Shown here in pieces: positions 688-19,100 of a stretch of 64,000 nt of DNA (position 1 is its first letter; each line of letters starts with the position of its first letter). The translations under genes were made by a program, and so were the position numbers. The notes beneath the pieces were generated by a model. It was not told the DNA's origin. It made no database searches and saw only the letters and a list, made by a program, of their open reading frames with translations. The stretch comes from an uncultured Candidatus Saccharibacteria bacterium (GTDB lineage Bacteria > Patescibacteriota > Dojkabacteria > J137): contig CAYPVU010000046.1 in the NCBI GenBank assembly GCA_964414295.1, positions 2,767 through 66,766 of the forward strand, in the 5' to 3' direction.

Positions 688-1371
688 ATGGCAAGTGGAG
701 TATTAATAGTAGGACCTTCTGGTAGTGGTAAATCTACCTCTATTAGAAATTTAGATCCTAAAGAAACATTTATTATTAATGTATTGAATAAAGACTTACC
801 TTTTAAAGGTTGGTCTAAAAATTATTCAGAATTTAATAAAGAAAATCCTAAAGGTAATATATTATTTAGTAATAATTTTACTACAATAGCTAATGCTATT
901 AAATATATTAATGAAAGTAGACCTGAAATCAAAAATATAGTTATTGATGACTTTCAAGCTACTATGGGATTAGAATACGCTAGACGTGTAAAAGAAGCAG
1001 GATTTGGTAAATTTCAAGATATTCTTTCAGGAGTATCTGCAATTATCAATGCTATTAAAGATGCTTCTAGAAAAGACCTTATAGTATATTTAATGAGTCA
1101 TCCTGAAACTGAAGTAGATGCTAATGGTAATAAGATTACTAAAGCAAAAACTGTAGGTAAAGGTGTAGACCAATATATTACTATAGAGGGTATGTTTACA
1201 ATAGTATTATATACTGCTAGTAGAAAGAAAGATAAAGAAGTAGATTATTTCTTTACTACTCAAACTGATGGTAGTAATACTGCAAAATCTCCAATGGAGA
1301 TGTTTTCAACTTATGAAATTCCTAATGATTTAAATATTGTTAGGAAAGCGATAATAGAATATTATTCGTAA
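688..1371 (+). CDS. P-loop NTPase, Sak4/RecA-like recombination ATPase candidate
   Basis: Walker A VLIVGPSGSGKST near the N-terminus and a hydrophobic-DD Walker B (IVIDDFQ). The ~230-aa size is typical of phage Sak4. Confidence 0.55.
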   Translation: MASGVLIVGPSGSGKSTSIRNLDPKETFIINVLNKDLPFKGWSKNYSEFNKENPKGNILFSNNFTTIANAIKYINESRPEIKNIVIDDFQATMGLEYARRVKEAGFGKFQDILSGVSAIINAIKDASRKDLIVYLMSHPETEVDANGNKITKAKTVGKGVDQYITIEGMFTIVLYTASRKKDKEVDYFFTTQTDGSNTAKSPMEMFSTYEIPNDLNIVRKAIIEYYS

Positions 1372-1414
1372 GCTTAGAGAGATAGTTTTTAGTTAATTAA
1401 TTTAAAATTTTATT

Positions 1415-1990
1415 ATGAGTAACGTACAATTTAATTTTAGCAACGCTGAAGAGATTAAAGTAAATGAGAGTAAATCTAAAAGAATTAAACCTGGTATTTA
1501 TCAAGTTGAAATTACTGGAATAAAAGTAGGACAAACTTCTACAGGATTACCTAGATTAGAAGTAGGTTTTATTACTCCTGAAGGAGAAACTCACACAGAA
1601 AACTTTAGTTTAAATTCTAAAGTAAATCCTGGTAAAACTAAATCAGGAATGGATATCACAATGTCTAAAATTAAGCATATTGGTTCTAAAGTAGTAACTG
1701 AAGAACAATTAAATAATGCTCAAACACCAGAACAATTAAACGCTTTACTTACAGGTAAAAAACTTCGTATGAAGTTTTGTGGTGAAGAGTTTATTGGTCA
1801 GAATGGAAAAGCAGTTAAAACTGTAATTGGTGGTGGAGTATTTGCAGAGTCTTTAGAAGTACCTCAAGATTCTACAATTTTGAAATTTGATCCAAATAAT
1901 GTATATGATATTAAACGTATTCCTACAGAAGAAGCTGCTGATAGTTCTATACCATCTAGTACTTCTAAATCTGATGAATTACCGTTTTAA
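1415..1990 (+). CDS. hypothetical protein (possible ssDNA-binding/OB-fold partner of the ATPase)
   Basis: Intact 191-aa ORF with a good ATG, sitting between the recombination ATPase and the primase. No diagnostic motif seen. Confidence 0.3.
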   Translation: MSNVQFNFSNAEEIKVNESKSKRIKPGIYQVEITGIKVGQTSTGLPRLEVGFITPEGETHTENFSLNSKVNPGKTKSGMDITMSKIKHIGSKVVTEEQLNNAQTPEQLNALLTGKKLRMKFCGEEFIGQNGKAVKTVIGGGVFAESLEVPQDSTILKFDPNNVYDIKRIPTEEAADSSIPSSTSKSDELPF

Positions 1991-2001
1991 TTGATAAATA
2001 G

Positions 2002-3087
2002 TTGTTTTTAAATAATGTAGAGAGGGTTAATAGCCCTCTCTATTATTATTACAATGTGGATAACAATATAAAATTTGATTTTAAAAAAGTTAGACCTGTA
2101 GATTTAAATTTAGATTATATTTATAAACGGCTAACACAAAAACAAATTTTAGAGCATTTTTTAGATGATACAATAGAATTTAAAAAGTTTATATTATCTC
2201 CTTTAAGGAAGGAAAATAATCCTTCTTTTAGTTTTAAATTAACTCCAAAGAATGATATAATTTGGACTGATTGGGGAACTGGTGAAACTGGAGATACAAT
2301 AAAATTTATTGAAAAATTATATGGTTGTAATCATCAAAAAGCTCTTGAAATTATATATGATAAACTTTTAAACGAGAAAAATGAACTTTATATTATTTCT
2401 GATAATAGTTTACGTTCTTCACAAGTTTCTGATAGTGAAAACTACAGAAGAACAACAAGAAGATCCTCTATAATTATTAAAGATCAGTTATTTACAGCTG
2501 CTGATAAATCTTATTGGAATAGTTATAATATAAGTTTACAAACTCTTGTTAAATATGATGTTTATTCTGTTAAATATTTATGGTATGAAGGAAATTTAAT
2601 AAAAACCTATAGTTCTAATAATCCTATATATGCTTATAAATTTACTTATGATGGTAATACTACTTATAAGATATATATGCCTTTTGAAGCCAAATCTAAA
2701 AAATGGTTAAGTAATACTACTAAAAGAGATATTCAAGGATACTCCCAATTACCTGAGAAAGATACTCTTTTAATTATTACTAAATCATTAAAGGATGTAA
2801 TGGTTTTAAATGAATTAGGATATAGTGCTATTGCTCCGCAAGCTGAATCTATAAATGTTGAAGAAAAGTTTATAGATAAGTTGTATAATAGGTTTGATAA
2901 TATAATAGTTTTTTATGATAATGATATAACTGGAATGTATCAAGCTAAAAAACTAAAAAAACAACATAATTTACCTAATATACAAATACCTAAAGAAATA
3001 TATAATGTTAAAGATATTAGTGATTTTTGTAAAAAATATGGAATTTATGAAACAAGAGAGTTCTTAAAAAAATTATTAACTATATGA
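2002..3087 (+). CDS. DnaG-like DNA primase (TOPRIM domain)
   Basis: TOPRIM signature: LIITKSLKDVMVLNELGYSAIAP ... NIIVFYDNDITGMYQAKKL (E..G...A plus DxD..G). The start codon is uncertain (TTG at 2002 or GTG at 2056). Confidence 0.5.
   Translation: MFLNNVERVNSPLYYYYNVDNNIKFDFKKVRPVDLNLDYIYKRLTQKQILEHFLDDTIEFKKFILSPLRKENNPSFSFKLTPKNDIIWTDWGTGETGDTIKFIEKLYGCNHQKALEIIYDKLLNEKNELYIISDNSLRSSQVSDSENYRRTTRRSSIIIKDQLFTAADKSYWNSYNISLQTLVKYDVYSVKYLWYEGNLIKTYSSNNPIYAYKFTYDGNTTYKIYMPFEAKSKKWLSNTTKRDIQGYSQLPEKDTLLIITKSLKDVMVLNELGYSAIAPQAESINVEEKFIDKLYNRFDNIIVFYDNDITGMYQAKKLKKQHNLPNIQIPKEIYNVKDISDFCKKYGIYETREFLKKLLTI
2019..2041 (+). terminator. hairpin AGAGAGGG-7nt-CCCTCTCT followed by a T/A-rich run
   Basis: Perfect 8-bp inverted repeat directly downstream of the stop at 1990. 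It overlaps the nominal TTG start of the next ORF, which probably starts later (GTG at 2056). Confidence 0.3.
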
Positions 3088-3680
3088 TATTTACAACAAC
3101 TCCTTGTAAATATGAGATTTTACATCAAGTAGAGATAGATGATTATATAGAATATGTAACATTATCTAAAAAAAGAAGACCTAAGTATCATAGAAAAGGT
3201 AGTAATATACCTAAAAAGTATTTAGATACAACTAAATACAACTTTGATACTAAAGGTACTCTAGTAGATGTTAAGACTGGTGAGAAAGTTATAGCTAACC
3301 CTAAAGTAGCAAATAAACCAAGACTTAAAAAAATATCTGGACAAGATATTTGGGTAGGAATAGATCATCATCTAAGAAGTAAAATAGCTAAAGAAGTAAA
3401 AAGTTACTTTAAAATAGCTTTTAAAAATATAAAACCTTTACAAGCTAAAGATTATCCTATAGGAGTTTCTATTGACTTTTATAAACCAATTGGTGAAGGA
3501 GATTATGATCTTGATAATTTAGTATTGATTTATAGAAAATGTTGTCACGATGCTTTAAAAGGAATTATTGAAGATGATACTGTTGCTTATCTTAGGTCTA
3601 TGCCTACAAATTTTATACCTATAAGCAATAATCAAAAAAGAAGAATGATTATTACTATATTTAAAATTGTATATTTATAA
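3084..3680 (+). CDS. RusA-like Holliday junction resolvase (tentative)
   Basis: Segment YPIGVSIDFYKPIGEGDYDLDNLVLIYRKCCHDALKGIIEDDTVAY matches the RusA D-x-D-N-L ... DD acidic catalytic pattern. Confidence 0.4.
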   Translation: MIFTTTPCKYEILHQVEIDDYIEYVTLSKKRRPKYHRKGSNIPKKYLDTTKYNFDTKGTLVDVKTGEKVIANPKVANKPRLKKISGQDIWVGIDHHLRSKIAKEVKSYFKIAFKNIKPLQAKDYPIGVSIDFYKPIGEGDYDLDNLVLIYRKCCHDALKGIIEDDTVAYLRSMPTNFIPISNNQKRRMIITIFKIVYL

Positions 3681-3695
3681 TTTAAAAAATAAATA

Positions 3696-4031
3696 ATGGT
3701 ACAAAATAAACAAATAATTTATACAGAAGAATTTGTTAATTTAGTTAGAGAAACTTTCAAAGATACTCCAGGAATAATATCTATGGCAGAAACTGGAGAT
3801 TATGCAATAGGAGAAATATTAGATGAATTAAGTGATCATCAAATAACTCCTGAGAATATTATTGATGCTTTTGATAGTCCCGATAGTTGGAGATCTATGC
3901 ATGATTTATATGTAACTGCTAGAAGAATGAAAAATGTTAATTTGCTACATGGAATGTGGTTAGAAAGAATTAGTGAAGTAGAAAATGCAACAGATAGAAC
4001 AATATCAGCTACAAAAGAAGGAAAAACCTAA
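3696..4031 (+). CDS. hypothetical protein
   Basis: 111-aa ORF. Its 47-nt overlap with the next gene suggests coupled translation. Confidence 0.3.
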   Translation: MVQNKQIIYTEEFVNLVRETFKDTPGIISMAETGDYAIGEILDELSDHQITPENIIDAFDSPDSWRSMHDLYVTARRMKNVNLLHGMWLERISEVENATDRTISATKEGKT

Positions 4032-4974
4032 TAGTGAAGTAGATTATTTTAACGTAAAAGCAATAAGTAATAGTAGTTTAGGATGGTATCTTAAAAGTCC
4101 TAGATATTATCAATTGAAAATAAATCAAGAAATAAAAGAAGATGATCAAAGTTATTTTGATTTAGGTTCTGCTATTCATTGTTATATATTAGAAAACAAT
4201 ATATTTAATGATAAGTATATAATATCCTATGTTAAACCTATAGAGGGTTTAATGGGTAAATTTATATCTTATTATGCTAAATATGACAATTTAGAAGAGG
4301 CTTATCACTATTCTGAATTTAAATATCCTTTAGATAGAGTATTAGAGTCTTTTAAAGAAGATAAGAATCAAAATTATTATAATTTTATTAAACAATCTCA
4401 AAATAAAACTATTATTTCTAAAGATGATTTTAAAACAATTGAGAATATTTATAATGGAGTAGTAGTTCACAAAAAAGCTTCAAAATTATTAATATCTACT
4501 AGTTCTTTACCTGAGTTAGGTTTCTTAGATGAATCTGAAGTTTTTACAGAACATGAAATATACTTTCAGTATATGAATAGTTTTTGTAAAGCTAAGTTAG
4601 ATAGATTTATCGTAAATCATACTAAAAAAGAAATAATATTAGTAGACTTAAAAACTACATCTAAATCTGTTTATGATTTTAGTAAAGCTTTCCTATCATA
4701 TGCTTATGATAGACAATTGGCTTTTTATAATTTAGCCTTATTATCAATATACCCAGACTATAAGATAACAAGTTACATAGTAGCTTGTCAAACATCATTT
4801 TTAAATGAAGTTATTTGTTATAAGATATCTGAAGAACAAATTTCTAATGGTTTAAATAGAGTTAATGATATTATATCTAAAATAGAAAAACACAATCTTT
4901 TCTATTTTGATTATCCTTTAGAGTACTTTGAAGGTGATGGTAGTGTAGAACTGATAATAGATAGTAATGGTTAA
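3985..4974 (+). CDS. PD-(D/E)XK family nuclease (Cas4/RecB-like phage exonuclease)
   Basis: N-terminal ISNSSLGWYLKSPRYY, motif ILVDLKTTSK (D-x-K), and YDRQLAFY (QxxxY) in the C-terminal third. Confidence 0.5.
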   Translation: MQQIEQYQLQKKEKPNSEVDYFNVKAISNSSLGWYLKSPRYYQLKINQEIKEDDQSYFDLGSAIHCYILENNIFNDKYIISYVKPIEGLMGKFISYYAKYDNLEEAYHYSEFKYPLDRVLESFKEDKNQNYYNFIKQSQNKTIISKDDFKTIENIYNGVVVHKKASKLLISTSSLPELGFLDESEVFTEHEIYFQYMNSFCKAKLDRFIVNHTKKEIILVDLKTTSKSVYDFSKAFLSYAYDRQLAFYNLALLSIYPDYKITSYIVACQTSFLNEVICYKISEEQISNGLNRVNDIISKIEKHNLFYFDYPLEYFEGDGSVELIIDSNG

Positions 4975-5512
4975 AAGTAAAAAGAAAGATGAAATAGCTT
5001 TAACTAAATCTACAACATTCATAAGACCTATGTTAGGTTACGATGTTCTTTTTTATGGAGATACTCACTGTAACTGTTATTTAAACTTAGATGGTGTAAA
5101 TGAAGGTTTTAGTTTAGTATTTAATAAAGAAAGATTAAAACTTTATGAATATATACCTAAAGAGTTTAGTAAACATCCGTTACTTAGAAATACATATGAT
5201 TTAGAAGATTATATGATATTTGAGTTTGATATACCAGATCAATATGTAGAAGATTTTTATCTATTTATAGATGGTAAATACTCTAAAATGAGTGATGATT
5301 ATAAAGAAGAAATTTTAGCTTTACATATGAGTAATCCTAAAATCTATGAAAAGTTAGAAGTTATATTATATCCTAGTAAAAAAGATATTAAAAAACTAGC
5401 TGACTTTTTAGATGTAGAATTACCTAAAGATGCTGAAGTTTTTGATAAAATAGATCTTAAAAAAGAATTGTTTGATTTAGATAATTTTAAAAATGATGAA
5501 AGAAACTCCTAG
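4967..5512 (+). CDS. hypothetical protein
   Basis: 181-aa ORF, tightly packed in the operon. Confidence 0.35.
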   Translation: MVKSKKKDEIALTKSTTFIRPMLGYDVLFYGDTHCNCYLNLDGVNEGFSLVFNKERLKLYEYIPKEFSKHPLLRNTYDLEDYMIFEFDIPDQYVEDFYLFIDGKYSKMSDDYKEEILALHMSNPKIYEKLEVILYPSKKDIKKLADFLDVELPKDAEVFDKIDLKKELFDLDNFKNDERNS

Positions 5513-5789
5513 TGAAAATTTAAAAATTGAAAGTTCTGATGGTAGAGTTCATGAATTTGAGCCAATTGGAGCTAACTCAATAAGACTATTTGGTGAACAA
5601 GTAGTAGTAGAGTATATTAGATATACTGATAACGATGAGAATATTAAAACCTTAAAATTAAAAGGTATTAAAGAGTTTAATATTGGTGATGATGCTGATA
5701 ATAATAGTGTTATAGTATCTATAATAGAAGATAAACACTCTGGAAAACCTAATAGTTTTATTTTTAATCGTGAAAAAAAGTCTAACTGA
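5493..5789 (+). CDS. hypothetical protein
   Basis: 98-aa ORF overlapping both neighbours by 20 nt. Confidence 0.3.
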   Translation: MMKETPSENLKIESSDGRVHEFEPIGANSIRLFGEQVVVEYIRYTDNDENIKTLKLKGIKEFNIGDDADNNSVIVSIIEDKHSGKPNSFIFNREKKSN

Positions 5790-6165
5790 AGAGAAGATTG
5801 GAATAAAGAAAATGGATATTAAAACTTATCAAGAAGAAGCTAGAAGAACAACAGCTCCGTTAGAATCTGAATTAATGAACTCTCTTCATTATATATCAGG
5901 TATAGTAACGGAAGCTGGTGAGCTTCTAGATGTATTGAAAAAAAACATAGCTTACGGGAAACCAATAGACTATGTAAATATGAAAGAGGAAGTTGGAGAT
6001 CTTATGTGGTATATTATTAATCTATGTGATCTTTATAATTGGAACATAGAAGAAATAATGGAAACTAACATAAATAAGTTAAAAATAAGATATCCTGAGA
6101 AATTTAATAGTGAAAAAGCTATTAATAGAGATTTAAGTGCTGAAAGAGCAGAATTAGAAAAGTAA
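5770..6165 (+). CDS. mazG: MazG-like nucleoside triphosphate pyrophosphohydrolase
   Basis: EAGELLD ... EEVGDLMWYIINLCDLYNWNIEEIMETNINKLKIRYPEKF is the canonical MazG E-x-x-E / E-x-x-D metal-binding helix pair plus the KL..RYP tail. Confidence 0.7.
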   Translation: MKKSLTEEKIGIKKMDIKTYQEEARRTTAPLESELMNSLHYISGIVTEAGELLDVLKKNIAYGKPIDYVNMKEEVGDLMWYIINLCDLYNWNIEEIMETNINKLKIRYPEKFNSEKAINRDLSAERAELEK

Positions 6166-6183
6166 CAATTAAAATTAAATAAA

Positions 6184-6429
6184 ATGAGAACTACAGCTAA
6201 AAAAAGTACTACTATTAACAAACGTGTTAATACTACTAAAGCTAAACGTAATTTACCTACAGGTATTTATTCTAGAGGAAATGGTACTTATAGAGTAATG
6301 GTTTGGGCAAATAATAAATTAAACTATTTAGGAACTTTTACAAGTTTAAATAAAGCTAAACTCGCAAAGAGTGAATGGAAAGGTGCTCCTAAAAATGGTA
6401 GAAGAAAAACAAAAACAAGTAGAAAATAA
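6184..6429 (+). CDS. AP2-domain DNA-binding protein
   Basis: LPTGIYSRGNGTYRVMVWANNKLNYLGTFTSLNKAKLA matches the AP2 beta-sheet/helix pattern (GV.....g.w.a.i....k...LG.F.t.eeAa.A). Confidence 0.45.
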   Translation: MRTTAKKSTTINKRVNTTKAKRNLPTGIYSRGNGTYRVMVWANNKLNYLGTFTSLNKAKLAKSEWKGAPKNGRRKTKTSRK

Positions 6430-7213
6430 CTATAATCCTGAATTACAGGATTTTGTAAATGTGTCTAATAACTTATTAGAAGTTCTATCTTCTAATGATA
6501 AGTATGATTACAATCTTTTAAAAGATGCTATTCAAGAAACATATTTTGAATTTATTAAAAATAAGATAGCTGGTATTAAATATAAGGGTGAGTTTTATTT
6601 TAGAAACTATCTTAAAACTATAATAAAGAAAAAATATGTTAAGTTTATATTTAGAGTTGGTAAAAGAAACACTTCAGAAGATATTAATAAATCTCAAATA
6701 AATATTTTTAGTAAATATCATGATTTATTAGAATCTGAAGATGTTAATTTTGAAGAAACATTAAGTGATTATTTACATTTATTAGATGAAAATAATCCTG
6801 AAAAAGTTTTAATATTTAAAGAGTTTTCATCTTTTTTAGATGAAGATAAAAATAAAATATTAAAAAAGCTTTATGAAGGATATGATACCAATGAAATTAA
6901 AAACCTTTATAATATATCTTCTAACAAAGTAACTCGTTCAGCTATTAGTAGACAAAGGCTAAAATTTAAATCTCATTTTAATTTAGACGTTAAAACAGTT
7001 AAGACTAATACTTTGAGTTACAAAAGAAAAGATGTACAAGGATCATTAAATAAATGGTCTAAGTTATCTGATAAAGATGTTATATTTATTAAGAAATTAA
7101 TTAAACTTGGTTTATCTAATACTTTAATCGTAGAAAAGATTAATCATAAAGTTAATAGAAGTACTATAAACAGAATTAGAACTAATAAACTTTGGACACA
7201 TATAATAGTATAA
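6371..7213 (+). CDS. hypothetical protein, possible transcription regulator/sigma-like
   Basis: The C-terminal third has an HTH-like segment (YNISSNKVTRSAISRQRLKFK). The start is probably the internal Met at about 6395. Confidence 0.3.
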   Translation: MNGKVLLKMVEEKQKQVENNYNPELQDFVNVSNNLLEVLSSNDKYDYNLLKDAIQETYFEFIKNKIAGIKYKGEFYFRNYLKTIIKKKYVKFIFRVGKRNTSEDINKSQINIFSKYHDLLESEDVNFEETLSDYLHLLDENNPEKVLIFKEFSSFLDEDKNKILKKLYEGYDTNEIKNLYNISSNKVTRSAISRQRLKFKSHFNLDVKTVKTNTLSYKRKDVQGSLNKWSKLSDKDVIFIKKLIKLGLSNTLIVEKINHKVNRSTINRIRTNKLWTHIIV

Positions 7214-7260
7214 CTCTACTTATTCTAAAGATAAGAAGTTGTTAAACTAGTTTTGATAGG

Positions 7261-7290
7261 TATTATAGGGAGTTAATTCTCCCTATAATA
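7261..7290 (+). terminator. perfect 12-bp-stem hairpin TATTATAGGGAG-TTAATT-CTCCCTATAATA (terminator or operator)
   Basis: 30-nt perfect palindrome in the 116-nt gap after the 6371..7213 gene. Confidence 0.4.
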
Positions 7291-7329
7291 TTAAAAACCA
7301 TAGAGTTATAAAATTATAAAATGTAAATT

Positions 7330-8250
7330 ATGAAAAAATTATTAATATTATTATTCTTATTACCTTTGTTTAGTATTGCTCAACAACAAAATCATTATAT
7401 TCCTAAAGAGAATATAATAGAAGATTATATTAAAGTTGGTAGTTGTGGTTCACCAGATGGTCCAGTATTACAAATAGCTAGCCCTCCTGCTAACTATAAT
7501 CAATTATTAACCAATGGTTATTGTAATTATAGTTATCCTACTACAGCTACTTTTACAGCTTGTTTTACATTTGTATCACCTGGTACTAGTGTTAGCTTAA
7601 ATGCTGGTTATTCTGCTAGTTGTGCAACAGTAACATTTAGTGGATTTACTTTATATAACAGTTCTTGTGCAGTAATAGGTACAGGATTGAATTTCAGTGG
7701 ATTAACACCTGGAGCTAGCTATACATGGTGCTTAACTATGAGAGCTAATGGAGGTCCTAGTTGTAACGGATTTACTACATTCTGTCCTTATTTCATGAAT
7801 ACTACTCCTTTACCAGTTAATCTAATAGAATATACTGCTAAAGTAGAAGATAGTATTGTTAAATTAGAATGGTTAACATTATCTGAAATTAATGCTGATT
7901 ACTATTATATTGAAAAAAGTACAGATTTAGTTAAAATTAGCTCATTAGAGCAACTTTCTGCTGCTGGTAATACTAATGTGCCAACTAAGTATAGAACGTT
8001 TGATTTAAAGCCTGAAAAAGGTATTAATTATTATACTTTAAAACAGGTTGATTTTGATGGTACAGTTTATGACTTAGGTACAAAAGCTGTGGTAATTAAA
8101 CATGAAATACATGAAAAGATTAACATTTATAATAGTAAAGGTCAATATATTGGTAATAGTTTAACTTCTGATTTATCACCTGGTTTGTACATAATTGAAA
8201 AAATATTTTTAAATGGTAATGTGGAAACAACTAAAATAATAATTAGATAA
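7330..8250 (+). CDS. secreted Cys-rich protein with a T9SS (Por) C-terminal sorting domain
   Basis: N-terminal signal peptide MKKLLILLFLLPLFSIAQQ. The C-terminus LEWLTLSEINADYYYIEKSTD...YYTLKQVDFDGTVYDLG...INIYNSKGQYIGNSLTSDLSPGLYIIEKIFLNGNVETTKIIIR fits the Flavobacteriia T9SS type-A CTD consensus. Confidence 0.65.
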   Translation: MKKLLILLFLLPLFSIAQQQNHYIPKENIIEDYIKVGSCGSPDGPVLQIASPPANYNQLLTNGYCNYSYPTTATFTACFTFVSPGTSVSLNAGYSASCATVTFSGFTLYNSSCAVIGTGLNFSGLTPGASYTWCLTMRANGGPSCNGFTTFCPYFMNTTPLPVNLIEYTAKVEDSIVKLEWLTLSEINADYYYIEKSTDLVKISSLEQLSAAGNTNVPTKYRTFDLKPEKGINYYTLKQVDFDGTVYDLGTKAVVIKHEIHEKINIYNSKGQYIGNSLTSDLSPGLYIIEKIFLNGNVETTKIIIR

Positions 8251-8435
8251 TGGCTGAAGAAAATATAAGAAAGATTGATCAATCTAAAATAGATAGATTG
8301 GAGGTTATTAATCATGCTTCAAATGATAAACCTATTGGTAGAATTTTAACTTTATATAAAGAATTAGGAGATTTTAATAGTATTGAGTTAGCAGTGCAAG
8401 ATAACGGTAAAACTATTAAAATATTTTTAGATTAA
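8250..8435 (+). CDS. hypothetical protein
   Basis: 61-aa ORF, ATGA-overlapped with the upstream gene. Confidence 0.3.
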   Translation: MAEENIRKIDQSKIDRLEVINHASNDKPIGRILTLYKELGDFNSIELAVQDNGKTIKIFLD

Positions 8436-8510: not shown

Positions 8511-8537
8511 AGGGAGCTTAACTGCTCCCTCTTTTTA
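8511..8537. terminator. bidirectional rho-independent terminator between convergent operons
   Basis: AGGGAGC-TTAACT-GCTCCCT hairpin with an A-run upstream and a T-run (CTTTTTATTTTTT) downstream. It sits between the + gene ending at 8435 and the - gene ending at 8535. Confidence 0.5.
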
Positions 8538-11500
8538 TTTTTTAATATCTCCATTTACATAATCATAAAAGTACTCTAATCTTCCCCAACCTACTATGAA
8601 TCTTCTTGATTTCTTACCTAGTTTATGATCTTCTCCAGTTAAAGCTTTCCAAACTTCTTTAAACCAGTTCATACCATCTTCTAAAGTACCAGAAGTAGCC
8701 ATAGGAGATTTTAAGATTTCCATTGCTGAGCCTAAACTTACAAAGAATGTTAATTCAGATACTAATCTATCAGATATTCTTGTAACATATCTCTCAAACC
8801 AAGTATCGTCATCATCACCATCATCAGACTTTAAAACAGTTACTAAACCAATTAATGCTGTAATAACAGCCATTTCTAATAAAACTCCTTTAAGATTAGA
8901 TTTTTCCATTTCAGATAGTTCAGAGAATTTCTTTTTACCTCTTAATATACCAAAGCCTTCTCTTAATAAAGTTCTATATCTACCTTCCACCCAAGTTTCT
9001 AATACATAATCATATTTCTTAGCTCCCCATCTAGACTCAAACTGTCTAGGAATCCAGTTACGATGTTGCATTAACAATCTACCCATTATAGTTCTATTGA
9101 TAGCTGCTTTATCATTAGGGTCTAAATTACCAGTTATATTTTTAATAACATGTAATACTTTCTGTCTAAATACTGCTATTTCTTCAGTAGTTGGTTCAGG
9201 TTTATTAGGATTATTCCAAACTAATTCTCCATCTTTAATAGTATAATCATTAAAAGATATACCATATTTACCTTCTAACATCATAGCCATCATTACAGAG
9301 TTCTGTAAAGCAAATTCAGATACTTTATATAAAGAATAAAAATGACTAGTATCAAATATCTTTTTAGATTTATAAGCAGTTAATTCTTTTGCATATTCTC
9401 TACCAAAGAAACCTGTAACTATATCAAATTTCTCCATTAGTAGTTTAGCTTTTTTATCATTTTCTGTAATACCACCATTACCTAAAGTAGCATATTTATA
9501 AGCTTTACCAAAGTTTTTAGTACTATAATATTTACCTGTTATAGCAGCAAAAGAAGCATTTGTTATATTACCTAAATGATCTACAACTGGAGCAAATAAG
9601 TTTAAACCTAAGTTCTTTAAAGATGTATAAGCTATTACTTTATCAAAAGCTTTATCTAAACCATATCTTTTACCACCTATTTCTATACCAGTTCCTTCTT
9701 CTTTAGCTCTCCCATAAAATACAGTATCTATATAATCTTTTAAGTGATTATAAGTATTAGTATTATCAGCTTTCATTTTCTTAGTACCATCAGGCATAAC
9801 TGCCTCAATAGCTTGAGTTTCTTTAATTTTATCTAAAGTAATTAAAGCAGTATTTTCTACTTCTTTTAACTCTCTATATCTATAAGCACTATCAATAAAT
9901 GTATAAAGTACTTGTCCTAAATCATAAGACTTTCTTTTATCCATAAACTCTCTTCTTTCTTCTCTATTATAGAATACCATTTCTTGAGCACCTAATACAG
10001 GAATATCATTAACTCTTTCACCAGTAATAGGATTTCTTAAACCATATTCTTTTTCATCCATTGTAAATTGTAAAGATTCAGAAGCTTCTTTTGGTAATTG
10101 TTTAATAGCTTCTAAAAAGCCTATATCCATAGCTTTCTCTACAAATTGTTTAGTAAAGTTTGGAATAAAGTTACTTCTAACATCTTTCATTGGTAAAAAC
10201 TCAGATACATCATCCATAGTTTTAGTATAAAGATCATAAAACTCTTTAAGTCTAGAATCATTTTGTATTTCTAAATACTTAGGATCAGCCCAGATTTCCA
10301 TCTTAGGTTTTCTAAACTTATTATTGTTTTTATTTCTTTCTTCCCATACTTTGATATTTTCATTGTATTTCTTTTCCCAAATATTATCAGCAATTAATAA
10401 TAGTTCATCTTGTGTTCTATCTTTATATTTATCAGATTTATTAAGATTACCTAATATTTCTACTATATCATATTTCTTTCTACCTTTTAATACTTCCTCA
10501 TAATTTTTTTTAGACGTTTTATACTTTTCATCATCTTTAATTGTATTCTTAGTAAACCATTCATCATTATTACTTCTAAGAGCTTTATTAAATTCTAACC
10601 AATAAGAATATTTAACAGGAGCTACTAAATTACCTGTTTTATTACCTTCATCATCTATTTGAAGCATTCTATCAAAATCAGAACTAGTTAGGTTATTTTT
10701 ATCAATAACAGCTTTAATTTTATTTTTTAAAGTATAAGAATCTTGTCTGCTCTTTTCTAAAGCTTTAGTAACCATTTTATAAACAGAAGCTACTAAAGGA
10801 TTTTCTGATTTACTAACACCTAACCAAAATCTAGACCACATAGAAGTTTCTACTTGTGGTTGTAAAGCATCTTCAGGAGATACTATACCATTTTGTCCTA
10901 ATATTTGTTGTTTAGTTAAATTATCACTAATAATATTAGTAGCTATTTTAAGCATAACACCTTCTAATCTCTTAGCAGTACCAACTATACTATCTACTAC
11001 AGCATGATCTTTTTTAGTTTTTAATTCTTCATCTGATAATATACTATTAAGATTAGTATATAACTTTAAACTATCTTTAATATCTTGCCAATTTAAACTA
11101 GGATCAAAGTTATCATCAGTTAATAAATCTTCTATAATAAGTAAATCTCTTTGTATAGCAGGTAATATACTAGCTAATGTTCTCTGTTTCTGTAAGTTAG
11201 AAATATATGTTTCTCTTGTAGAAATAAAATCTTTTATTTTTTCTTTCTCTTTCTCATCAGTTTGTTTAGTTAATTTTCTCTCTAATATTTCTATTTGAGT
11301 TCTAAAATTATCTATCATTTCATCAATCTTAACTATACCAGTTTTTTCTAAACCTGTAGGAATAGAATTGTTATACTCAAATGATTTTAAGAAATATTTT
11401 TTAGTATTAGTAGTTTTATCATCTTGTATAGTATAAGTATTAGATATAGGTATAATACGTTTTTTAGCTACTTTAGAAGGAAGTATACCTAGTTTAGGAT

Positions 11501-13154
11501 CACCTTTTTCAAGTATCTTAACATATTCATTAATCTGAAGATTGTAACCTTTCATTTTATTTTTATGAATACCTGATTTACTACCAGGTTTAACATCATA
11601 AATATCTAAAGTACCATCTTTCCTAATAATAAGGATATCTATTGTACCAGCTCTTTTACTAGTAGTATTAGCAACCATTACTTCAGATAATACAATAGAA
11701 CCATCTTTTTTAGCCTCAGCTATAATATCAGCAATAGTTTCTATACCAGAATCAGAACTTCTAGTATTAAGTTTAGATTTTAATATACTATATATAGGAT
11801 TACTAGAATATTTAGATTCAATAGGTTTTAAATGCTTATTCTCATTAGGAAAAGCTTCTCTAATTAATTCTGATACTATTGCATGTTTTAATAACCCTAT
11901 TTGCTTTTCTCTTTCATTTTTCTCTATATCTTCTTTAGTTTGAGTAGAACCAGCAAATCTTTTATTATAATCCTCTTCTACCATTTCAGTAGGTGATTTA
12001 TAACCTTTTTCTCCTAATACTTCATATCTCTCTCCTTTAGCTCCAGTTTCATCTTTTATTATTTTAGATTGTAACTCTTGTAAAGAAGTTAATATAGATT
12101 TTTGAGATACTTCTCCAGCTTGATAAAAATCAGAATCTTCTAATGTTTGATTATTTTTTTTAGACGTTTTACCAGAGAGTATTTCAGAAGCTATATCTTT
12201 ATAAGGATTAGATACTTTATTATCAGCTATTCTAATAGCATCAGATAACTTAGTTAATCCTACATTCTTTAATATTCTTTTTAATACATTTAATACATTA
12301 TCAAACCATCTATTAGCTTTTTCTATATTAGCTTCAGTTTCTTCACCTTTAAACTGTTTAACTATATGATTAGCTATTAATTTACCAATAGCTTCTTCTT
12401 TTATCTTATCTATATTAGATGTACCATCTTCATTCTGATATGCTACAAATGAACTATATTCAGCTAAAGTAGCTTTATATATCTCATATTTAGTTATATC
12501 CTTCATCATCTTATTAAATAAAGGATTATCTTTACCTAATAATCTTACAGCAAAGTGAGCAGCTTCTTCAGATAAAGTATCTAATCTAGATTTACCTTTA
12601 ACTACTTGTATTAAATTATCTAATAACTTAGCTCTAGCTATAACATTTAAAGGATTTCCTTGAGAATCTGTTATCTCATCTAATTCTTCTACTGTTACAC
12701 CAATACTATCTAAATATTCCTTTATAATATTATCTAAGTTTTCGTTAGCATCTTCCATCATAGAAGATACTTGATAATTACCTGATTTTATTTTTTCAAT
12801 ATTAGCTTTTCTACCATTAGAATAAGTTAAATAATAATTACCATTAGATGCTTTAGCTATATCTAAATTTAATTTTTGAGCCTCTTGTCTTAGTTGGGCT
12901 ACATGTACTAAACTACTTGGAGCAAAACCACTTTGATTAATATTCCATTTATTAAGAAAAAAATTAATATCTTTTTCAGATACTTGATAAAAATCAGTAT
13001 TAATATTAAGCTCTTCTAAAGTAGGAAATCTATCATAATTATTATTCTTAGATTGCCATACAGAAAACTTAGCAGCTACTAAATATGAAGGTAATCCTAA
13101 TCTATCAGCTGCTTGTTTTACTTCAGGATGATTTTTATTTATACAAATAATCAT
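8535..13154 (-). CDS. large virion (probably ejected) protein, 1539 aa, with an acidic patch and a C-terminal transmembrane helix
   Basis: Last gene of the late operon, with a 4-nt overlap to the giant ORF. The C-terminal region has GVLLEMAVITALIGLVTVL followed by DDGDDDD. Confidence 0.45.
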   Translation of the reverse strand: MIICINKNHPEVKQAADRLGLPSYLVAAKFSVWQSKNNNYDRFPTLEELNINTDFYQVSEKDINFFLNKWNINQSGFAPSSLVHVAQLRQEAQKLNLDIAKASNGNYYLTYSNGRKANIEKIKSGNYQVSSMMEDANENLDNIIKEYLDSIGVTVEELDEITDSQGNPLNVIARAKLLDNLIQVVKGKSRLDTLSEEAAHFAVRLLGKDNPLFNKMMKDITKYEIYKATLAEYSSFVAYQNEDGTSNIDKIKEEAIGKLIANHIVKQFKGEETEANIEKANRWFDNVLNVLKRILKNVGLTKLSDAIRIADNKVSNPYKDIASEILSGKTSKKNNQTLEDSDFYQAGEVSQKSILTSLQELQSKIIKDETGAKGERYEVLGEKGYKSPTEMVEEDYNKRFAGSTQTKEDIEKNEREKQIGLLKHAIVSELIREAFPNENKHLKPIESKYSSNPIYSILKSKLNTRSSDSGIETIADIIAEAKKDGSIVLSEVMVANTTSKRAGTIDILIIRKDGTLDIYDVKPGSKSGIHKNKMKGYNLQINEYVKILEKGDPKLGILPSKVAKKRIIPISNTYTIQDDKTTNTKKYFLKSFEYNNSIPTGLEKTGIVKIDEMIDNFRTQIEILERKLTKQTDEKEKEKIKDFISTRETYISNLQKQRTLASILPAIQRDLLIIEDLLTDDNFDPSLNWQDIKDSLKLYTNLNSILSDEELKTKKDHAVVDSIVGTAKRLEGVMLKIATNIISDNLTKQQILGQNGIVSPEDALQPQVETSMWSRFWLGVSKSENPLVASVYKMVTKALEKSRQDSYTLKNKIKAVIDKNNLTSSDFDRMLQIDDEGNKTGNLVAPVKYSYWLEFNKALRSNNDEWFTKNTIKDDEKYKTSKKNYEEVLKGRKKYDIVEILGNLNKSDKYKDRTQDELLLIADNIWEKKYNENIKVWEERNKNNNKFRKPKMEIWADPKYLEIQNDSRLKEFYDLYTKTMDDVSEFLPMKDVRSNFIPNFTKQFVEKAMDIGFLEAIKQLPKEASESLQFTMDEKEYGLRNPITGERVNDIPVLGAQEMVFYNREERREFMDKRKSYDLGQVLYTFIDSAYRYRELKEVENTALITLDKIKETQAIEAVMPDGTKKMKADNTNTYNHLKDYIDTVFYGRAKEEGTGIEIGGKRYGLDKAFDKVIAYTSLKNLGLNLFAPVVDHLGNITNASFAAITGKYYSTKNFGKAYKYATLGNGGITENDKKAKLLMEKFDIVTGFFGREYAKELTAYKSKKIFDTSHFYSLYKVSEFALQNSVMMAMMLEGKYGISFNDYTIKDGELVWNNPNKPEPTTEEIAVFRQKVLHVIKNITGNLDPNDKAAINRTIMGRLLMQHRNWIPRQFESRWGAKKYDYVLETWVEGRYRTLLREGFGILRGKKKFSELSEMEKSNLKGVLLEMAVITALIGLVTVLKSDDGDDDDTWFERYVTRISDRLVSELTFFVSLGSAMEILKSPMATSGTLEDGMNWFKEVWKALTGEDHKLGKKSRRFIVGWGRLEYFYDYVNGDIKK

Positions 13155-16100
13155 TGGTTATTCTTTAAACATTTTAACATTACTCTTTTATCTTCTTCAG
13201 TACCCATATTAAAGTAACTCTCAGTAATATCTTGAGCTTCTAACTTATCTTTAACTTCTTGTATTAAGTTTGCAAATATAATACTTTTATCTGAATTAAT
13301 CAAAGAATTTATATAATTATCTAAATTATTAAACTTATCTTTTATACCATACATTTTCATTTTTTTATTGAAATCTTCAGTATTAAAGTCTTCAGTAAAA
13401 GTATAACCATCGTTATATGTTATTTTAGCTGTAGTAACATTATTGTTAACAGAAATAACATTTATTTTAATGTTATTAAAGTTATTCTTAGAATCTATTT
13501 TATAGTCTATAATTGGTGTACTAGTTTCTTTATTCGGATGATCTATAGAAAACTCTTGATTTTTAAGTATATAATTATCTAAATTATCTGTAACTTTAAG
13601 TTCTTGTCTAACTTCCATTAATAATTTAGGAAACTCTTTACCCCATTTACCTTTATCTTGTGTATGTGTAAGTTCTGACTTTCCTGTAGCTAATAATTTT
13701 TGTAAAGCTTTTGGATTTTGTTCAAAAGAAGCTTTTATTAACTGACCCATTAATTCCGTCTGTTGTGCATCAGTAGTTGTACCTAAAGGTCCTCTAAATT
13801 TAGAAACAGTCATTACACCATTTCTATTAAAAGGAATATAAGCTCTGTTATCGTAAGTAGCTTTATCAAACTTACCGCCTTTTAAAGATTGGTATGCTTG
13901 TTCCACAGAATTAAAAGAAACACCTTTAAAAGTAAAAGGTCTAACAGCAAAGTTACTCAACTCAGCATTTTCATTAGTATCTGCGTAAATATTAATTTTA
14001 GGTAAACTTGGGTCAAATAAATTATCTATTGGTGCTTCTTTAGCAGGAACAGATAATTCAACTGGATTTAATAAAGCACTTGTTAATTCATCTTCTATAA
14101 CATTATCTTGCTCAACATTAGTTTCATTTATTTCAATAGTAGATATAGGAGTAGGTTTAACCATATTATATTCATTAACTCTTCCTAAAGAATCAGCAAT
14201 AAAGTTTCTTTGCTCTAAAGTTAATCCAGTATTATTTTCATCTATAATACTTTTCTTTTTAGTCTTATACCATTCTTGTAAATTAGCTCCATTACCTAAA
14301 GGATTATCTATTACAAAAACAGGCATATCTTGAGAATCTTTACCCATATTTTCATAGATAAACTCTCTCTTAGCATCAGGATTCCACATTTTAATATACT
14401 TTTTATTAGAGTATACTTTATTATAATCAGATTTTTTTAAAGAAAACCCTAAAATTCTATCACCATCTTTATATACTCTATTAGTATTATATAAAGGTAT
14501 CATTTCTTGTAACTCTTGATTAAATACCATATTATATAATTTAAACTTAGATAATACAGTTTTCCAATTATTTTTAGCAAATTGAACTACAAATCCTCTA
14601 GTAATACCTTCTTGATCTTTAATATAAGCTTCTTTAAATAAATTTAAAGCTCTTTGTAATACTGGTATCATTTTATCAGCAGGTAAGTATTTCATATAAC
14701 TTAAATAACTTTCTGCTATACCAGATTGAAATAAAGCTAAATCTATTAATTTACCTCCTAAAGCAGGATTAGTATTAAATAACTCTTGTATAGAACCTGT
14801 TATCTGATCTGATGTATATTTATTAAACTTTTTATTAATAAACTGTACATTATCTATACTTGATTTATTTTTAATAAGAGGTATAACATATCTATTTATA
14901 AATAGATTATTATGTAAAGGATGATTAGGATCTCTCTTAATAGCTAATATTTGTTTACCAACAGAGTTATCACCTAAAAATAATTCTTTTAATAAATTTT
15001 GGTTAACTAATGTTTCATCTAATCCTACTAAGTATACATAATTTAAAAATGAATCAGTTATAGTATCTAATAATTTTTCATCTTGGATATCTCCTTCTAT
15101 GTTCATAAATGATTTAATTTCATTTAAGAACTTTTTATATAAAGGAGAACCAGTTAATAATAATTGCCCCCATAAGTCTATTGAAAATTTAGCACCATTG
15201 TTTTTAAATCCTCTCATAAAAGTAGCATTATATACTTCTTTTAAATTAGGTATTAGTACTCTACCAATAGGAACAGTTGGATCTATACCAGCTTTTTCTT
15301 GTTTAGCAATATAATTATAAGCACTAGGAAGATCTTTACCTACACCAAATGTATCATCTTTAGTAGCATTAATAGCATCAGTATACAATTTAGAATCTTC
15401 CATTAATCTTAAATAGTCATCTAATAATTGTAACTGTAATTTAGCATTTTCTGCTTCAGATAGTTGTCTAAGTTCTCTTAAATTATTAAAGTTAAAAGTA
15501 TTATTACCTAGTATATTATCTCTATCTTTTTTGTATTGAGTGTTTACAAACTTTATAACTTCAGGTTCTTTAGCATCATATAAACTATATTGATATAACT
15601 TAACAGAATCTTTGTTTAATTGTTTAATATACTTATCTCTTATTTTTTTAATTACTTCATTTTTACTTAAATTATTCTTACCAGTTAAACCTTTATTAAT
15701 TCTAGATTCTTTCACAAAATCTCTAATAATAGGTTGATTTAAGAACTCTATAACAAACTTATAATCAGCTCCTATAGAAATCATATATAAAGCTAAATCA
15801 GTTGTCATAGGATTAATATTCATCTTAGAAATAAATGGATCTTTAGCATTATCCACAAATGCTGTTAAGAACTCAGAAATCATTTCAGATATCAATGTAT
15901 TTCCTTTATTATCATAAACACCAGCTAATGATGGATATCCTTCTTGAGTTTTATTAAAATCAAAATTATAACTAAATCCTGGAACTACATATAGATTAGC
16001 AATTTGTGATAATATGTGGAAAGTATTGTGTAATGCTGATTGACCAACACCTGCTTTACCTTCCATATTTCTAACATGAGTATCTAATATTGTAGGAAAC

Positions 16101-19100
16101 TCTATTAATTTAGATCCTTTTACTTTACTAGAACCATCATCATAAAACTCTTCATATAGTTGTTTAAGCTTAGTACTACCATTAGGAGTAATTAACTGTT
16201 TAAATATTATATCATTAGGACCACTATTTCTTAATACAGTATGATTAATTTGATTTAATCTATTTTGTAATATTTGCTCTTCTGATAAAGGTTTATTATC
16301 AAAGTTATGATTATTAATAAATATATTTAATTTATCCACGTCAAAATCAGAACCACCTTGTGCAACTATCTCAGAAGGTACTACAACAGATTGTCCAGAT
16401 TCAGCAGGTAAAAATCCTACTATTTTAAAACTAACCATTGAGTTAAGTCCTTGTGTAGGAATACGATATCCTAATACATCTAATAATTCAGGATTAATTT
16501 TAGCTAAGTCTTCAACTGTTTTAACACCTTTATCAGCCCACATATTAGGAACTAATATTTCAGCTTGTAGAATCTCTTTACCATTTTTATCATTCTTTCT
16601 AACAAAAGCTAATCTTCTAGATCCTACTTCTTTATCAGTTTTCATACCAACAGTTTCAAATCCTGTTGATGCTACTTGAATTAATGTAGTACCTTTAGTT
16701 TTTTGTTTAATAATTCTATTATTAACTAAAGCTTGGAATAAGTTTTCTATTTTATTTCTAACTACAAGAGAATCTAAACTAGCCTTTAGTTTACTAGGAT
16801 TGTCTTTATCATATAATTCATCAAGACCATCTATAATATTCTCAGGTAAATTTCTTTGTCTTACTTCAGCCTTAATTAACTTTAATAGTTTTTCAGTATT
16901 ATTAAAAGTATAAATATCTTCTTCTTTAGTTACACCTAGCTCAGATAATAACTTTTCTTTAGATATTTCTGTAAGTCTATCTATAATATCAGAATACTCA
17001 TTAAATAATTCAGTAGCTGTAACTTCTTTATTATTATAAAAGTCAATTAACTGATAGTTATTATCAACACCTAGACCAAATAAATTAGAGAATAATAGTT
17101 TTCTTAGCTGTGTACCGTATAATATATTAGTTTTAACTTCCTGATTAGTATCTAACTGTAATCTTAAATAATCTAATCTTATTTTATTAGTATATAATTC
17201 TCCTTTATTAGATATTTTAATATCACTATTAGGATCATTATTTACATATAAATCATTTAACATAACCTTTGAGGGTGTACCTACTTTATTACCTGATTCA
17301 AATACAGCTATACCTACTCCATTATTCATTAAAGATTTATTTAAGTTCTCTAATTTACTACCTTTAATCATTGTAGGTAATAAAGGAACTAATGATAACT
17401 TTAAATAGAATGGTACATAAGAATCTTTATAATTTAGATCTGGTCCATAGTGCATTGGTTTTATTGGACTAAATAAAGCAAACTCTTCTTTAGTAATAGT
17501 TTGGTTATTCATTAATTTCTTATAAGCAGCTTCATGCGAATCAGACCAATAATAACCACCTAATCTAATCATATAATCTCTAAATGCAGGTAATGTAATA
17601 TATCCTTGAGCATCTGCTTCATTTAATTTAGCATAAGTTTCATCTACTATAGCAGGATCAATATATTTTTTATATTCATCTGTTAATAAAGATGTAATTA
17701 TAACATCCTTATAAACAGCTACTTTCATAGTACCATCTGTAGGATATTCAGATACTTGCTCAGGAAGTACGTTAATAAAATGATCTCTATATATTAAATT
17801 ATTAATATAAGAATCAATAGCAGGTATCTTACCAGTTGCTATTATACCAGGAGTTCTTTTATAGAAATCTTTAAAATAAGCTAAATCACCAAAAAATAAT
17901 TTAGTTTGTTCTATTGCACTAATTAACTCATTAACTCCAAATATAGCAGCTATTTCATTAATTTTATAAGATTGTAAGTTTTTACTTAAATCTGAAGAAG
18001 TTACATTAAACTCTTGTAATTTAGGTAATAATCTATTATTAGTATAATCTGTTAGATAATCAAATAACTCTCCTCTAAATCTATCTAATAGTTCATCATA
18101 TACTTTAGTACCTTCAATAATAGGTAACTTATAAGTTATTAAATCACTTTTTAGTTTATCAGATAACCAATCAAATAATAAAAACTCTTTACCATTTTTA
18201 TCAAACTCTTCTACTCCTTCTAATGTATCATAACTATTGATTCTATTAAGTTCATCTAATACATATCCAAAGAATTGTCTTTGTAACTCAGGATTAACAG
18301 ATACTCTATTATTATCTATTTGTATATCTTCTTTAGTAAATACTTTTAATCCTTTTAAACCATATTCTAATTTCTTATCAGCAGGTCTTAATAAAGTATG
18401 TATTTTATTATCTAATAAGTCTATTATCCTAGATATAATAATATCTTTTTCAGATAGCTTAGAATGATGTTTAGATTCTTCTTCAGCACTAATACCATCT
18501 CTAATAACTATTTGTAATTTACTATTATTTTTAATCTGTCCTAACCAAGTACTATGAACAATATTTTTATTGTTAGCAGTATCTAATTGAGGTAATACTT
18601 TATTATTTTTTAAATCATTAATTATTTGAGCTAAATAATTATATAAAGTAACAGCATAAACAGATTTACCTTCAGAATTAATAAAGTTTAATTCTATTTC
18701 ATCAACAGAATTAAGAGCTTCCATATTAATTAACTGTTTAAATCTACCAGCAGATATATTATCACCATAGTTAAACCATTCAGTAATTTGTTTATCTTCA
18801 TTTATACTTTTTAGTACTTCAGCTTTTAACTCAGCTACTATACCTTTAGCTTTCTTATAAGTTTCTTCATTACTTAATTTAATACCTAAAGAATCTAAAA
18901 ATAATTTATCATTATCTTTAACACTATTATATAGTTTTAATTTTTCTTCTTTAGTTCCAATAGAATATTTAGAATTTTTAATTCCTGATAAAAACTCTTT
19001 TCTAATTTTACTTTCAAGCTTTTCTGTAATAGCATCTATAGAATAAATGTTACCATCTCTATCTACAATTGTTTTTACATAGTCATTTTTAGTTTTACTA

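Follow-up and report, generated by a model that had tools for sequence, protein, structure and literature searches.

Phages that encode cargo proteins of the bacterial type IX secretion system (T9SS) have already been described. In 'Cryophage' (Bellas et al. 2020, PMC7468147), whose host is of the Bacteroidota type, variable accessory genes end in a T9SS sorting domain, and the authors proposed that the host T9SS is hijacked, possibly for superinfection exclusion (PMC7468147). T9SS sorting-domain proteins in non-core positions have also been reported for the crAss-like 'cluster 2' phages (de Jonge et al. 2019, PMC6949934). The concept of phage-encoded T9SS cargo is therefore not new (PMC7468147, PMC6949934). 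We have analyzed a 64-kb stretch of DNA, hereafter called the window, which contains on its + strand, at positions 7330..8250 (stop codon included), a gene for a presumably exported accessory protein of 306 amino acids (aa). The open reading frame (ORF) starts with ATG and agrees with the 306-aa product of an earlier reading of this DNA (the original prediction), in which a phage protein with a T9SS C-terminal sorting domain (CTD) had been proposed. The protein consists of a putative signal peptide, a cargo module, a domain preceding the CTD (pre-CTD domain) and a C-terminal tail, and sequence comparisons support the view that this architecture copies that of bacterial T9SS cargo. What is new is a discrete and rare family in which a module resembling pre-peptidase C-terminal (PPC) domains, with putative disulfides, is combined with the pre-CTD domain, the spread of this family over unrelated phage lineages and Chitinophagales, and the predominance of an N-terminally truncated CTD that is missed by the standard thresholds of hidden Markov models (HMMs).

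The comparison with the described systems revealed clear differences. The cargo of Cryophage comprises an endoglucanase, a GH39 and a PA14 protein with full, annotated type-A CTDs (PMC7468147), whereas the protein of the window combines a non-enzymatic PPC-like module with a truncated CTD scoring below the thresholds. In the cluster 2 phages, the T9SS proteins are linked to BACON repeats and lie beside the head module (PMC6949934). These phages were compared with the family of the window by description; a tblastn search of 50,697 deposited phage records, 147 of them with a crAss-like major capsid protein (MCP), did not detect any family member, and only four huge uncultured phages gave matches, which were confined to the middle (pre-CTD) domain. 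A similar layout was found in a protein named 'T9SS type A sorting domain-containing protein [Vicingaceae bacterium]' (P0059) and in an unannotated 369-aa ORF of the 462-kb uncultured phage LR756500.1 (L019 1949-3058). Both possess a signal peptide, a variable N-terminal module, a middle domain with 41-48% identity (41% for the phage ORF) and a sorting region. They differ from the window protein by their unrelated N-modules and by a complete CTD of ~85 aa, which includes the YPNP motif and strands β1-β2 and passes the HMM threshold (full TIGR04183 CTD with 32.7 bits in the phage ORF). Envelope proteins by which phages exclude superinfecting phages or mask receptors include Llp of T5 and Imm and Sp of T4. 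They share with the window protein that they are phage-encoded, signal-peptide-bearing and non-virion proteins acting at the host envelope, but they are related to it neither in sequence nor in structure and the analogy is conjectural.

An AlphaFold2 (AF2) model based on 38 relatives (pLDDT 88) distinguishes a first β domain (aa ~40-157), a second one of seven strands (aa 163-256) and a third one of four strands (aa 261-305). Pfam and PHROGs did not yield any match to the 306-aa protein. Foldseek comparisons of the whole model with the PDB were uninformative, as they gave generic tandem Fn3/Ig matches only (TM ~0.25); the fold matches of the model include viral UniProt entries annotated 'Secretion system C-terminal sorting domain'. 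A database search with the protein disclosed ~56 full-length relatives of ~300 aa (35-98% identity) and ~34 more distant proteins having only the middle third in common, most of which have PF18962. Several of the distant proteins originate from Bacteroidota and are named 'T9SS type A sorting domain-containing protein'. They are mostly bacterial T9SS cargo, composed of a variable N-module, the middle domain (LPV.L...W.T.SE.NN..F.VERS.DG...NYYRLKQVDFDG) and a complete CTD beginning with YPNP. In all of the bacterial middle-domain proteins, a full-length CTD-type region (~85 aa) follows, and most of them score on PF18962. Since the middle domain precedes a complete CTD in bacterial cargo, the YYTLKQVDFDG motif belongs to a pre-CTD domain and not to the CTD. 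In the window, this domain is seven-stranded and Fn3/Ig-like (aa 161-256; 7810..8097, + strand; LPVxL...W.T.SE.N.DY..IE.S.D...NYY.LKQVDFDG), and the stretch YYTLKQVDFDGTVYDLG is part of it. The CTD of ~90 aa assumed in the original prediction thus has to be split: the last ~50 aa indeed resemble a type-A CTD, while the preceding aa 161-256 form a separate Fn3-like domain. A sequence search of the PDB with aa 161-306 did not retrieve a CTD structure.

The tail (aa 257-306; 8098..8247, + strand) can be described as a reduced type-A CTD that is equivalent to the β3-β7 part of a complete one, with four strands predicted. It has kept the N-S-K-G271 loop, the sequence DLSPGLY and K302 and is devoid of YPNP and β1-β2. 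TIGR04183 matched the tail with an E value of 0.0026 and 17.7 bits, compared to a cut-off of 23, while PF18962 did not match the 306-aa protein at E<=10. Hence, the HMM search by which the CTD was to be checked did not confirm it at the curated thresholds. The TIGR04183 alignment covers aa 256-306 and profile positions 15-72 of 72, and extends to the very last residue of a protein that bears a putative Sec signal peptide. Among the 38 aligned relatives, five were matched by PF18962 and seven by TIGR04183 at the same position as the tail of the window protein. The relatives that pass the thresholds include P0017, P0019, P0021, P0032 and P0035, and also the further members P0103 (52.9 bits) and P0169 (30.2 bits). 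BLASTP aligned the window tail with the PF18962-positive CTD of P0017 (E 8e-5, 35% identity over 52 columns, residues 35-85 of the 85-aa segment), and an hhalign comparison of a short-tail profile with a bacterial-CTD profile gave a P value of 7.6e-4, the strands 'I.N..GQ.V' and 'GIY' being matched and a stretch of 16 residues being skipped. A locally built HMM of bacterial CTDs scored 17.5 bits on the tail. Judged from these alignments, the tail is homologous to bona fide type-A CTDs.

Structurally characterized CTDs of P. gingivalis are 59-108 residues long and form a sandwich of seven strands (3+4) with the sheets β4-β3-β6-β7 and β5-β2-β1 (PMC11285876, PMC10994853). Two of their elements are functionally relevant, the β3-β4 loop and the C-terminus (PMC11285876), the latter region containing a nearly invariant, functionally important lysine; recognition of the CTD depends largely on its fold (PMC10994853). 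Compared to relatives with a full CTD, the window protein lacks ~25 aa (YPNP, β1-β2) and another ~12 aa in the β5 region. What has been retained is essentially the β4-β3-β6-β7 sheet including both functional elements, as mapped by alignment and not by structure. The N-x-x-G loop exists in 38 of 38 members with G271 being invariant, and all but one of them (37 of 38) have a lysine among their last eight residues, which is K302 in the case of the window. The AF2 model contains four strands in aa 261-305 instead of the seven of a CTD. The tail is therefore best called a reduced CTD, that is, a CTD by homology but not by structural definition.

At its N-terminus the protein reveals the sequence MKK, a hydrophobic core of 11 residues and SIA|QQQ, which makes a Sec/signal peptidase I (SPase I) signal peptide plausible and agrees with the original prediction in this respect. 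The signal peptide, read from the sequence, comprises aa 1-18 (MKKLLILLFLLPLFSIAQ; 7330..7383, + strand). The probable SPase I site, SIA|QQ, would expose a glutamine; there is no lipobox cysteine, the first cysteine being residue 39. At the cleavage position, [ASGTC]Q is found in 36 of the 38 family members and Q19 is nearly invariant. A glutamine following the signal peptide (Q-rule) is specific to SPase I substrates of Bacteroidetes (PMC5837995), and this rule was earlier used to argue that phage proteins of P. gingivalis are adapted to host export (PMC10367356). Together with the signal peptide and the Q-rule, the confinement of all eight cysteines to one domain of extracytoplasmic type points to an exported protein, whose signal peptide would be cleaved.

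These cysteines (positions 39, 65, 78, 98, 113, 134, 145 and 152; seven of them invariant) are located in the N-terminal module (aa 34-160; 7429..7809, + strand), a predicted β-sandwich in which they are likely to form four disulfides. The number of about 20 cysteines in roughly 140 aa originally given for this part of the protein was a miscount. The module is the most conserved part of the family proteins, with a mean pairwise identity of 54%, which drops to 37% for the middle domain and to 27.5% for the tail. Modeled alone, it yielded a β-sandwich superposable on structures of collagenase collagen-binding/PPC domains, and the predicted fold most closely resembles those of clostridial collagenases. 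The identity of the module to the collagen-binding (PPC-superfamily) domains of ColH/ColG (PDB 3JQW, 5IKU, 1NQD) and to the pre-peptidase C-terminal domain of B. anthracis (5SV5) amounts to 11-16%, and the four putative disulfides are specific to the family of the window protein, contrary to the collagenase/PPC domains. Because of this resemblance, the modeled module may be a binder rather than an enzyme. A catalytic domain is absent from the 306-aa protein, and therefore the modification of polysaccharides, which had also been considered, is unlikely. The PPC profile of Pfam did not match the protein at E<=10. In a profile search of the PDB, the module hit only the Fn3 domain of chitinase A1 (E 0.22).

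A profile of the N-domain was searched against 1.84 billion representative proteins and gave only 91 matches, ~70 of which are proteins of 250-360 aa with the same layout. With about 70 clusters, the family is small. Large Fn3-repeat proteins among the matches were discarded as spurious, as they were hit locally at an Fn3-like 'GLTPG..Y' motif. Measured from the end of the middle-domain motif, ~60 members have a tail of 41-59 aa, ~10 members one of 60-73 aa and ~10 members one of 76-100 aa, mostly with PNP; in the window protein it comprises 62 aa. The short tail is thus the rule in this family and not a sign of decay peculiar to the window phage. In a rough neighbor-joining tree (without support values), members with a full CTD do not group together but turn up in at least five clades, interspersed with members having a short tail. 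It follows that the two tail forms interconverted repeatedly, possibly via recombination in the shared middle domain.

To sample the phage contexts of the family, nine metagenomic neighborhoods were inspected. All of them were phage-like and unrelated to one another. Besides the crAss-like window, the contexts include a T4-like contig (Gp23, gp13 and sheath genes) which harbors the closest non-identical homologue (59% identity), a 353-kb contig in IMG/VR, an integrase contig and replication modules with DnaB, UDG, DNA polymerase A and ThyX. In IMG/VR, the family is present on six contigs. Among the contexts compared, neither a common neighbor gene nor a conserved partner was detected, the upstream and downstream ORFs being unrelated. 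One phage-like contig with a family member (P0145) additionally encodes a 175-aa protein with a weak match to CHU_C, a type-B T9SS signal (L042 5544-6071, + strand); Bacteroidota phages may carry both CTD types.

The idea that the family is restricted to phages had to be abandoned. A profile search of GTDB genomes with a narrower alignment had found nothing, but a scan of GTDB species genomes with a degenerate DNA pattern led to five true members, four of which reside on contigs of Chitinophagales metagenome-assembled genomes (MAGs; L026 101-1045, L029 5909-6856, L020 2710-3456 and L027 2291-3148). The neighbors on these contigs are plainly bacterial, among them an ABC-F ATPase, a two-component system, a porin, an SprB-repeat/CHU_C protein and DUF2461. 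In L020, L027 and L029, the family gene adjoins a gene for a protein of ~750-780 aa which also contains the middle domain. The one in L029 (3506-5776, 756 aa) revealed a T9SS CTD match below the threshold (PF18962, 20.6 versus 27 bits). All three Chitinophagales copies that could be read up to the C-terminus (L026, L027 and L029) possess the short tail, while L020 is interrupted by masked sequence. The fifth member (L024 7193-7999, - strand) is situated on a contig of 8.4 kb that was assigned to 'uncultured Legionella sp.' but probably stems from a phage or from Bacteroidota and was mis-binned.

The window is part of a crAss-like phage (Crassvirales), as follows from its MCP, portal and terminase genes, which match the crAss-type families phrog_11589 (E 8e-114), phrog_6547 (E 1e-157) and phrog_6681 (E 8e-128), respectively. 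Its GC content is ~27%. The MCP is ~35% identical to that of gut crAss-like phages over 98% of its length. It matched 147 phage records, in which the named hosts all belong to Bacteroidota genera (Bacteroides, Flavobacterium, Cellulophaga and Azobacteroides). The assignment of the host to the Bacteroidota, made originally on account of the T9SS, is supported by these crAss-like genes, since every cultured relative infects Bacteroidota, by the Q-rule signal peptides (36/38) and by the chromosomal homologues of Chitinophagales. The gene is the penultimate one of a + strand block (688-8435) which includes genes for a PD-(D/E)XK/DUF3799-type nuclease, a MazG-like pyrophosphatase and a sigma-70/ECF-like protein. 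This block converges with a long - strand block, in which the structural genes are located together with two giant ORFs of 1539 and 4074 aa.

Based on the ORF, its domain architecture, the homology of the tail, the phage context and the spread of the family, we infer signal-peptide cleavage, disulfide formation, T9SS passage, a binding function and a benefit for the phage, which can be combined in the following way. The signal peptide would direct the protein to Sec, and SPase I would cut after SIA, leaving an N-terminal glutamine. In the periplasm, the N-terminal β-sandwich might fold oxidatively with four disulfides. The C-terminal unit of Fn3-like pre-CTD domain and 50-aa reduced CTD would probably be recognized by the PorV/SprA translocon of the host and the protein carried over the outer membrane, the retained β4-β3-β6-β7 sheet containing both elements with a known role in secretion, i.e., the loop between β3 and β4 and the lysine motif at the C-terminus. 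Displayed on the cell surface or released, the PPC-like module could bind a ligand on the surface or in the environment. The most plausible benefit for the phage would be an altered cell surface, for instance by masking of a T9SS-dependent receptor, superinfection exclusion or adhesion. Phage resistance of Flavobacterium maps to gliding/T9SS genes (PMC9804748; bioRxiv 10.1101/2020.10.02.323337), and a protein delivered by the T9SS would therefore be well placed for receptor masking. An exported, probably disulfide-bonded binder that passes the T9SS by means of its reduced CTD is the explanation which we favor, with somewhat more confidence than doubt. A further-reaching version, that the tail of 35-50 aa is a naturally minimized, fully functional T9SS signal, a half-sandwich β4-β3-β6-β7 perhaps completed by packing on the Fn3-like domain and used by Chitinophagales and many unrelated phages to display a disulfide-bonded binder on (infected) cells, is put forward tentatively and is rather doubtful.

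Several observations weigh against T9SS passage of the binder. The tail remains below the curated thresholds of both HMMs, PF18962 and TIGR04183. With ~50 aa and four predicted strands, it is smaller than the characterized CTDs and lacks their seven-strand sandwich, β1-β2 being gone and β5 shortened. Disturbance of the integrity of the CTD in RgpB (A719R) blocked secretion (PMC11285876), and by analogy with this work and with the fold dependence of recognition (PMC10994853), an intact CTD fold may be needed by the window protein, too. Furthermore, the tail is the least conserved domain, and the PPC-like assignment stems from a predicted structure with moderate Z and is not backed by a sequence profile. 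Apart from the last point, these observations, in particular the emphasis of the literature on the seven-strand fold (PMC11285876), also speak for a vestigial signal. In this case, the protein would be exported by Sec and would act within the periplasm or on the periplasmic side of the outer membrane, e.g., by binding a component of the envelope, with a tail that no longer drives T9SS secretion and serves only as a structural cap. On the other hand, the short tail is similar in length and motifs across members that average ~40% identity and belong to unrelated phages and chromosomes, at least five clades of the rough neighbor-joining tree show an exchange between full and short tails at the same position, and the strands that have been kept are exactly those bearing the functional motifs. 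A vestigial signal is for these reasons regarded as unlikely, albeit as the most serious of the competing explanations.

It is also conceivable that the half-CTD engages PorV/SprA and stalls transport, thereby throttling T9SS output and stripping the cell of receptors, by which superinfection or adsorption of the progeny to debris would be blocked. Retention of the C-terminal lysine and the β3-β4 loop at the expense of the full fold (PMC10994853) and the dependence of Flavobacterium phage receptors on gliding/T9SS genes (PMC9804748) would suit such a decoy, but chromosomes of Chitinophagales carry the same short tail in ordinary neighborhoods, which is hard to reconcile with self-poisoning. 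The short tail of these chromosomal copies therefore argues for a working feature and not for a jamming device, and we deem the decoy improbable. Even less credit is given to a virion decoration or fiber accessory that binds the host surface by Ig/Fn3-like domains. The Foldseek hits of the complete model among Fn3-rich proteins of tail tips and fibers, from which it could be deduced, reflect a generic tandem β-sandwich (TM 0.2-0.4), and a virion component would hardly be expected to combine a putative, cleavable Q-rule Sec signal peptide with a disulfide-rich domain, to be encoded at the end of the + module (MazG-like, DUF3799/PDDEXK-type nuclease and sigma-like genes) opposite the structural module, and to occur in phages of different morphotypes as well as in bacterial chromosomes. 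The existence of bacterial homologues could finally mean that a host DNA fragment was mis-assembled into the phage contig, an artefact considered already in the original prediction. Its probability is negligible: three independent sequencing runs yielded contigs with an identical protein, identical neighbors and identical flanks, one of these contigs being 86 kb long, the gene has phage genes to its left and right, the GC content of the gene (28.7%) matches that of the window (27.3%), and the closest homologues are likewise located on phage contigs.

If the short tail of this binder does drive secretion, it would represent a natural minimal T9SS signal of 35-50 aa, compared to 59-108 residues in the characterized CTDs, and would narrow down what is recognized by PorV/SprA. 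A functional short tail could also be used as a compact tag for surface display. Should the minimal signal hold true, it would define the smallest unit that the T9SS translocon recognizes, and the gene would be a surface-conversion gene common to several phage lineages; a vestigial tail, by contrast, would leave an ordinary exported accessory protein of the phage. Members of the family were acquired separately by crAss-like, T4-like, jumbo and other Bacteroidota phages, which suggests that manipulating the host surface is of general use. The Chitinophagales copies are good candidates for studying the short tail in a culturable relative. Moreover, a Q-rule signal peptide together with a CTD remnant may serve as host-phylum markers for uncultured phages, which are missed if HMM thresholds alone are applied.

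The gene is flanked by two hairpins, as had been predicted, but it is not alone between them. The upstream hairpin (7261..7290) is a perfect 12-bp inverted repeat, TATTATAGGGAG-TTAATT-CTCCCTATAATA, which ends 40 nucleotides (nt) before the ATG. It is not followed by a T-run, and its RNA is predicted to fold with -19.2 kcal/mol (z -5.0). This hairpin may be a terminator, a 5' stabilizer or a processing site. The downstream one (8511..8530), consisting of an A-run, GGGAGC-TTAACT-GCTCCC and a T-run, is a canonical bidirectional intrinsic terminator, situated where the + and - modules converge. Apart from these two, the 64 kb do not contain any GGGAG...CTCCC hairpin, and 0.02 would be expected by chance. 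Two unrelated phage contexts (L001 9933-9957 and L002 9947-9977) likewise have perfect hairpins, of 10 and 15 bp, at a distance of 25-45 nt before the family gene. Within the hairpin bracket, the gene is followed by a 61-aa ORF without a signal peptide (8250..8435, + strand), which matches phrog_10600 (function unknown) with an E value of 1e-5. The bracket encloses a two-gene cassette. The start of the 61-aa ORF overlaps the stop codon of the 306-aa gene (TAATG), and both genes are therefore probably co-translated. The 61-aa ORF is absent beside the family gene in the five other contexts compared (L001, L002, L004, L013 and L014). For a comparison of the locus, relatives of the flanking genes were sought in IMG/VR and the protein database, and none were found.

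The accessory nature of the gene is supported, since the 50,697 phage records did not contain any family member and since its homologues occur in unrelated phages without shared neighbors. The original prediction had likened the gene to a moron, which is supported in part. The flanking hairpins fit this description and so does the patchy distribution across lineages, as the crAss-like MCP exists in 147 records while the family was encountered on T4-like, jumbo, integrase and DNA-polymerase-A contigs. By contrast, the GC content of the gene given above does not deviate from its surroundings, and a promoter was not identified in a scan for the sigma-70 consensus, which yielded no excess of promoters (11 compared to 13.1 expected) and does not cover Bacteroidota and phage promoter types.

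Some other genes of the window deserve mention. Immediately 5' of the cassette, the ORF 6395-7213 (+ strand) has the appearance of a sigma-70/ECF-type factor (TIGR02937, E 8e-6, 25.6 bits versus a cut-off of 42.9); a metagenomic homologue (56% identity) bears the JGI label 'sigma24 family', and Pfam and PHROGs gave no match. Beyond the convergent terminator, the giant ORFs 8535-13154 (1539 aa) and 13151-25375 (4074 aa), both on the - strand, recall by their size and position the very large virion proteins of crAss-like phages. For the last 400 aa of the 1539-aa ORF, neither a homologue nor the protein itself was retrieved from the protein database at E<=1e-10. The large-terminase ORF (53542-56583, - strand) is unusually long with 1013 aa. 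A match to a crAss-type TerL PHROG covers residues 483-993, and other TerL PHROGs as well as P-loop families (DnaC-like loader, primase) were hit by the ~480 aa at the N-terminus. Within the structural block, a 208-aa ORF (38964-39590, - strand) matched a GIY-YIG homing-endonuclease PHROG weakly (E 0.005). Nearby, a 193-aa ORF (38118-38699, - strand) possesses a lipoprotein-like N-terminus (…LLVNSC) and a match to the T9SS membrane protein family PorP_SprF which is below the threshold (E 0.011, 15.7 versus 22.3 bits) and probably not significant. An HMM scan of all ORFs of at least 50 aa in the window did not reveal further T9SS-like genes. Lastly, a 129-aa ORF (63222-63611, + strand) without a family match has a signal peptide ending in the Q-rule-like sequence …GISQ and is a second candidate for an exported protein of this phage.

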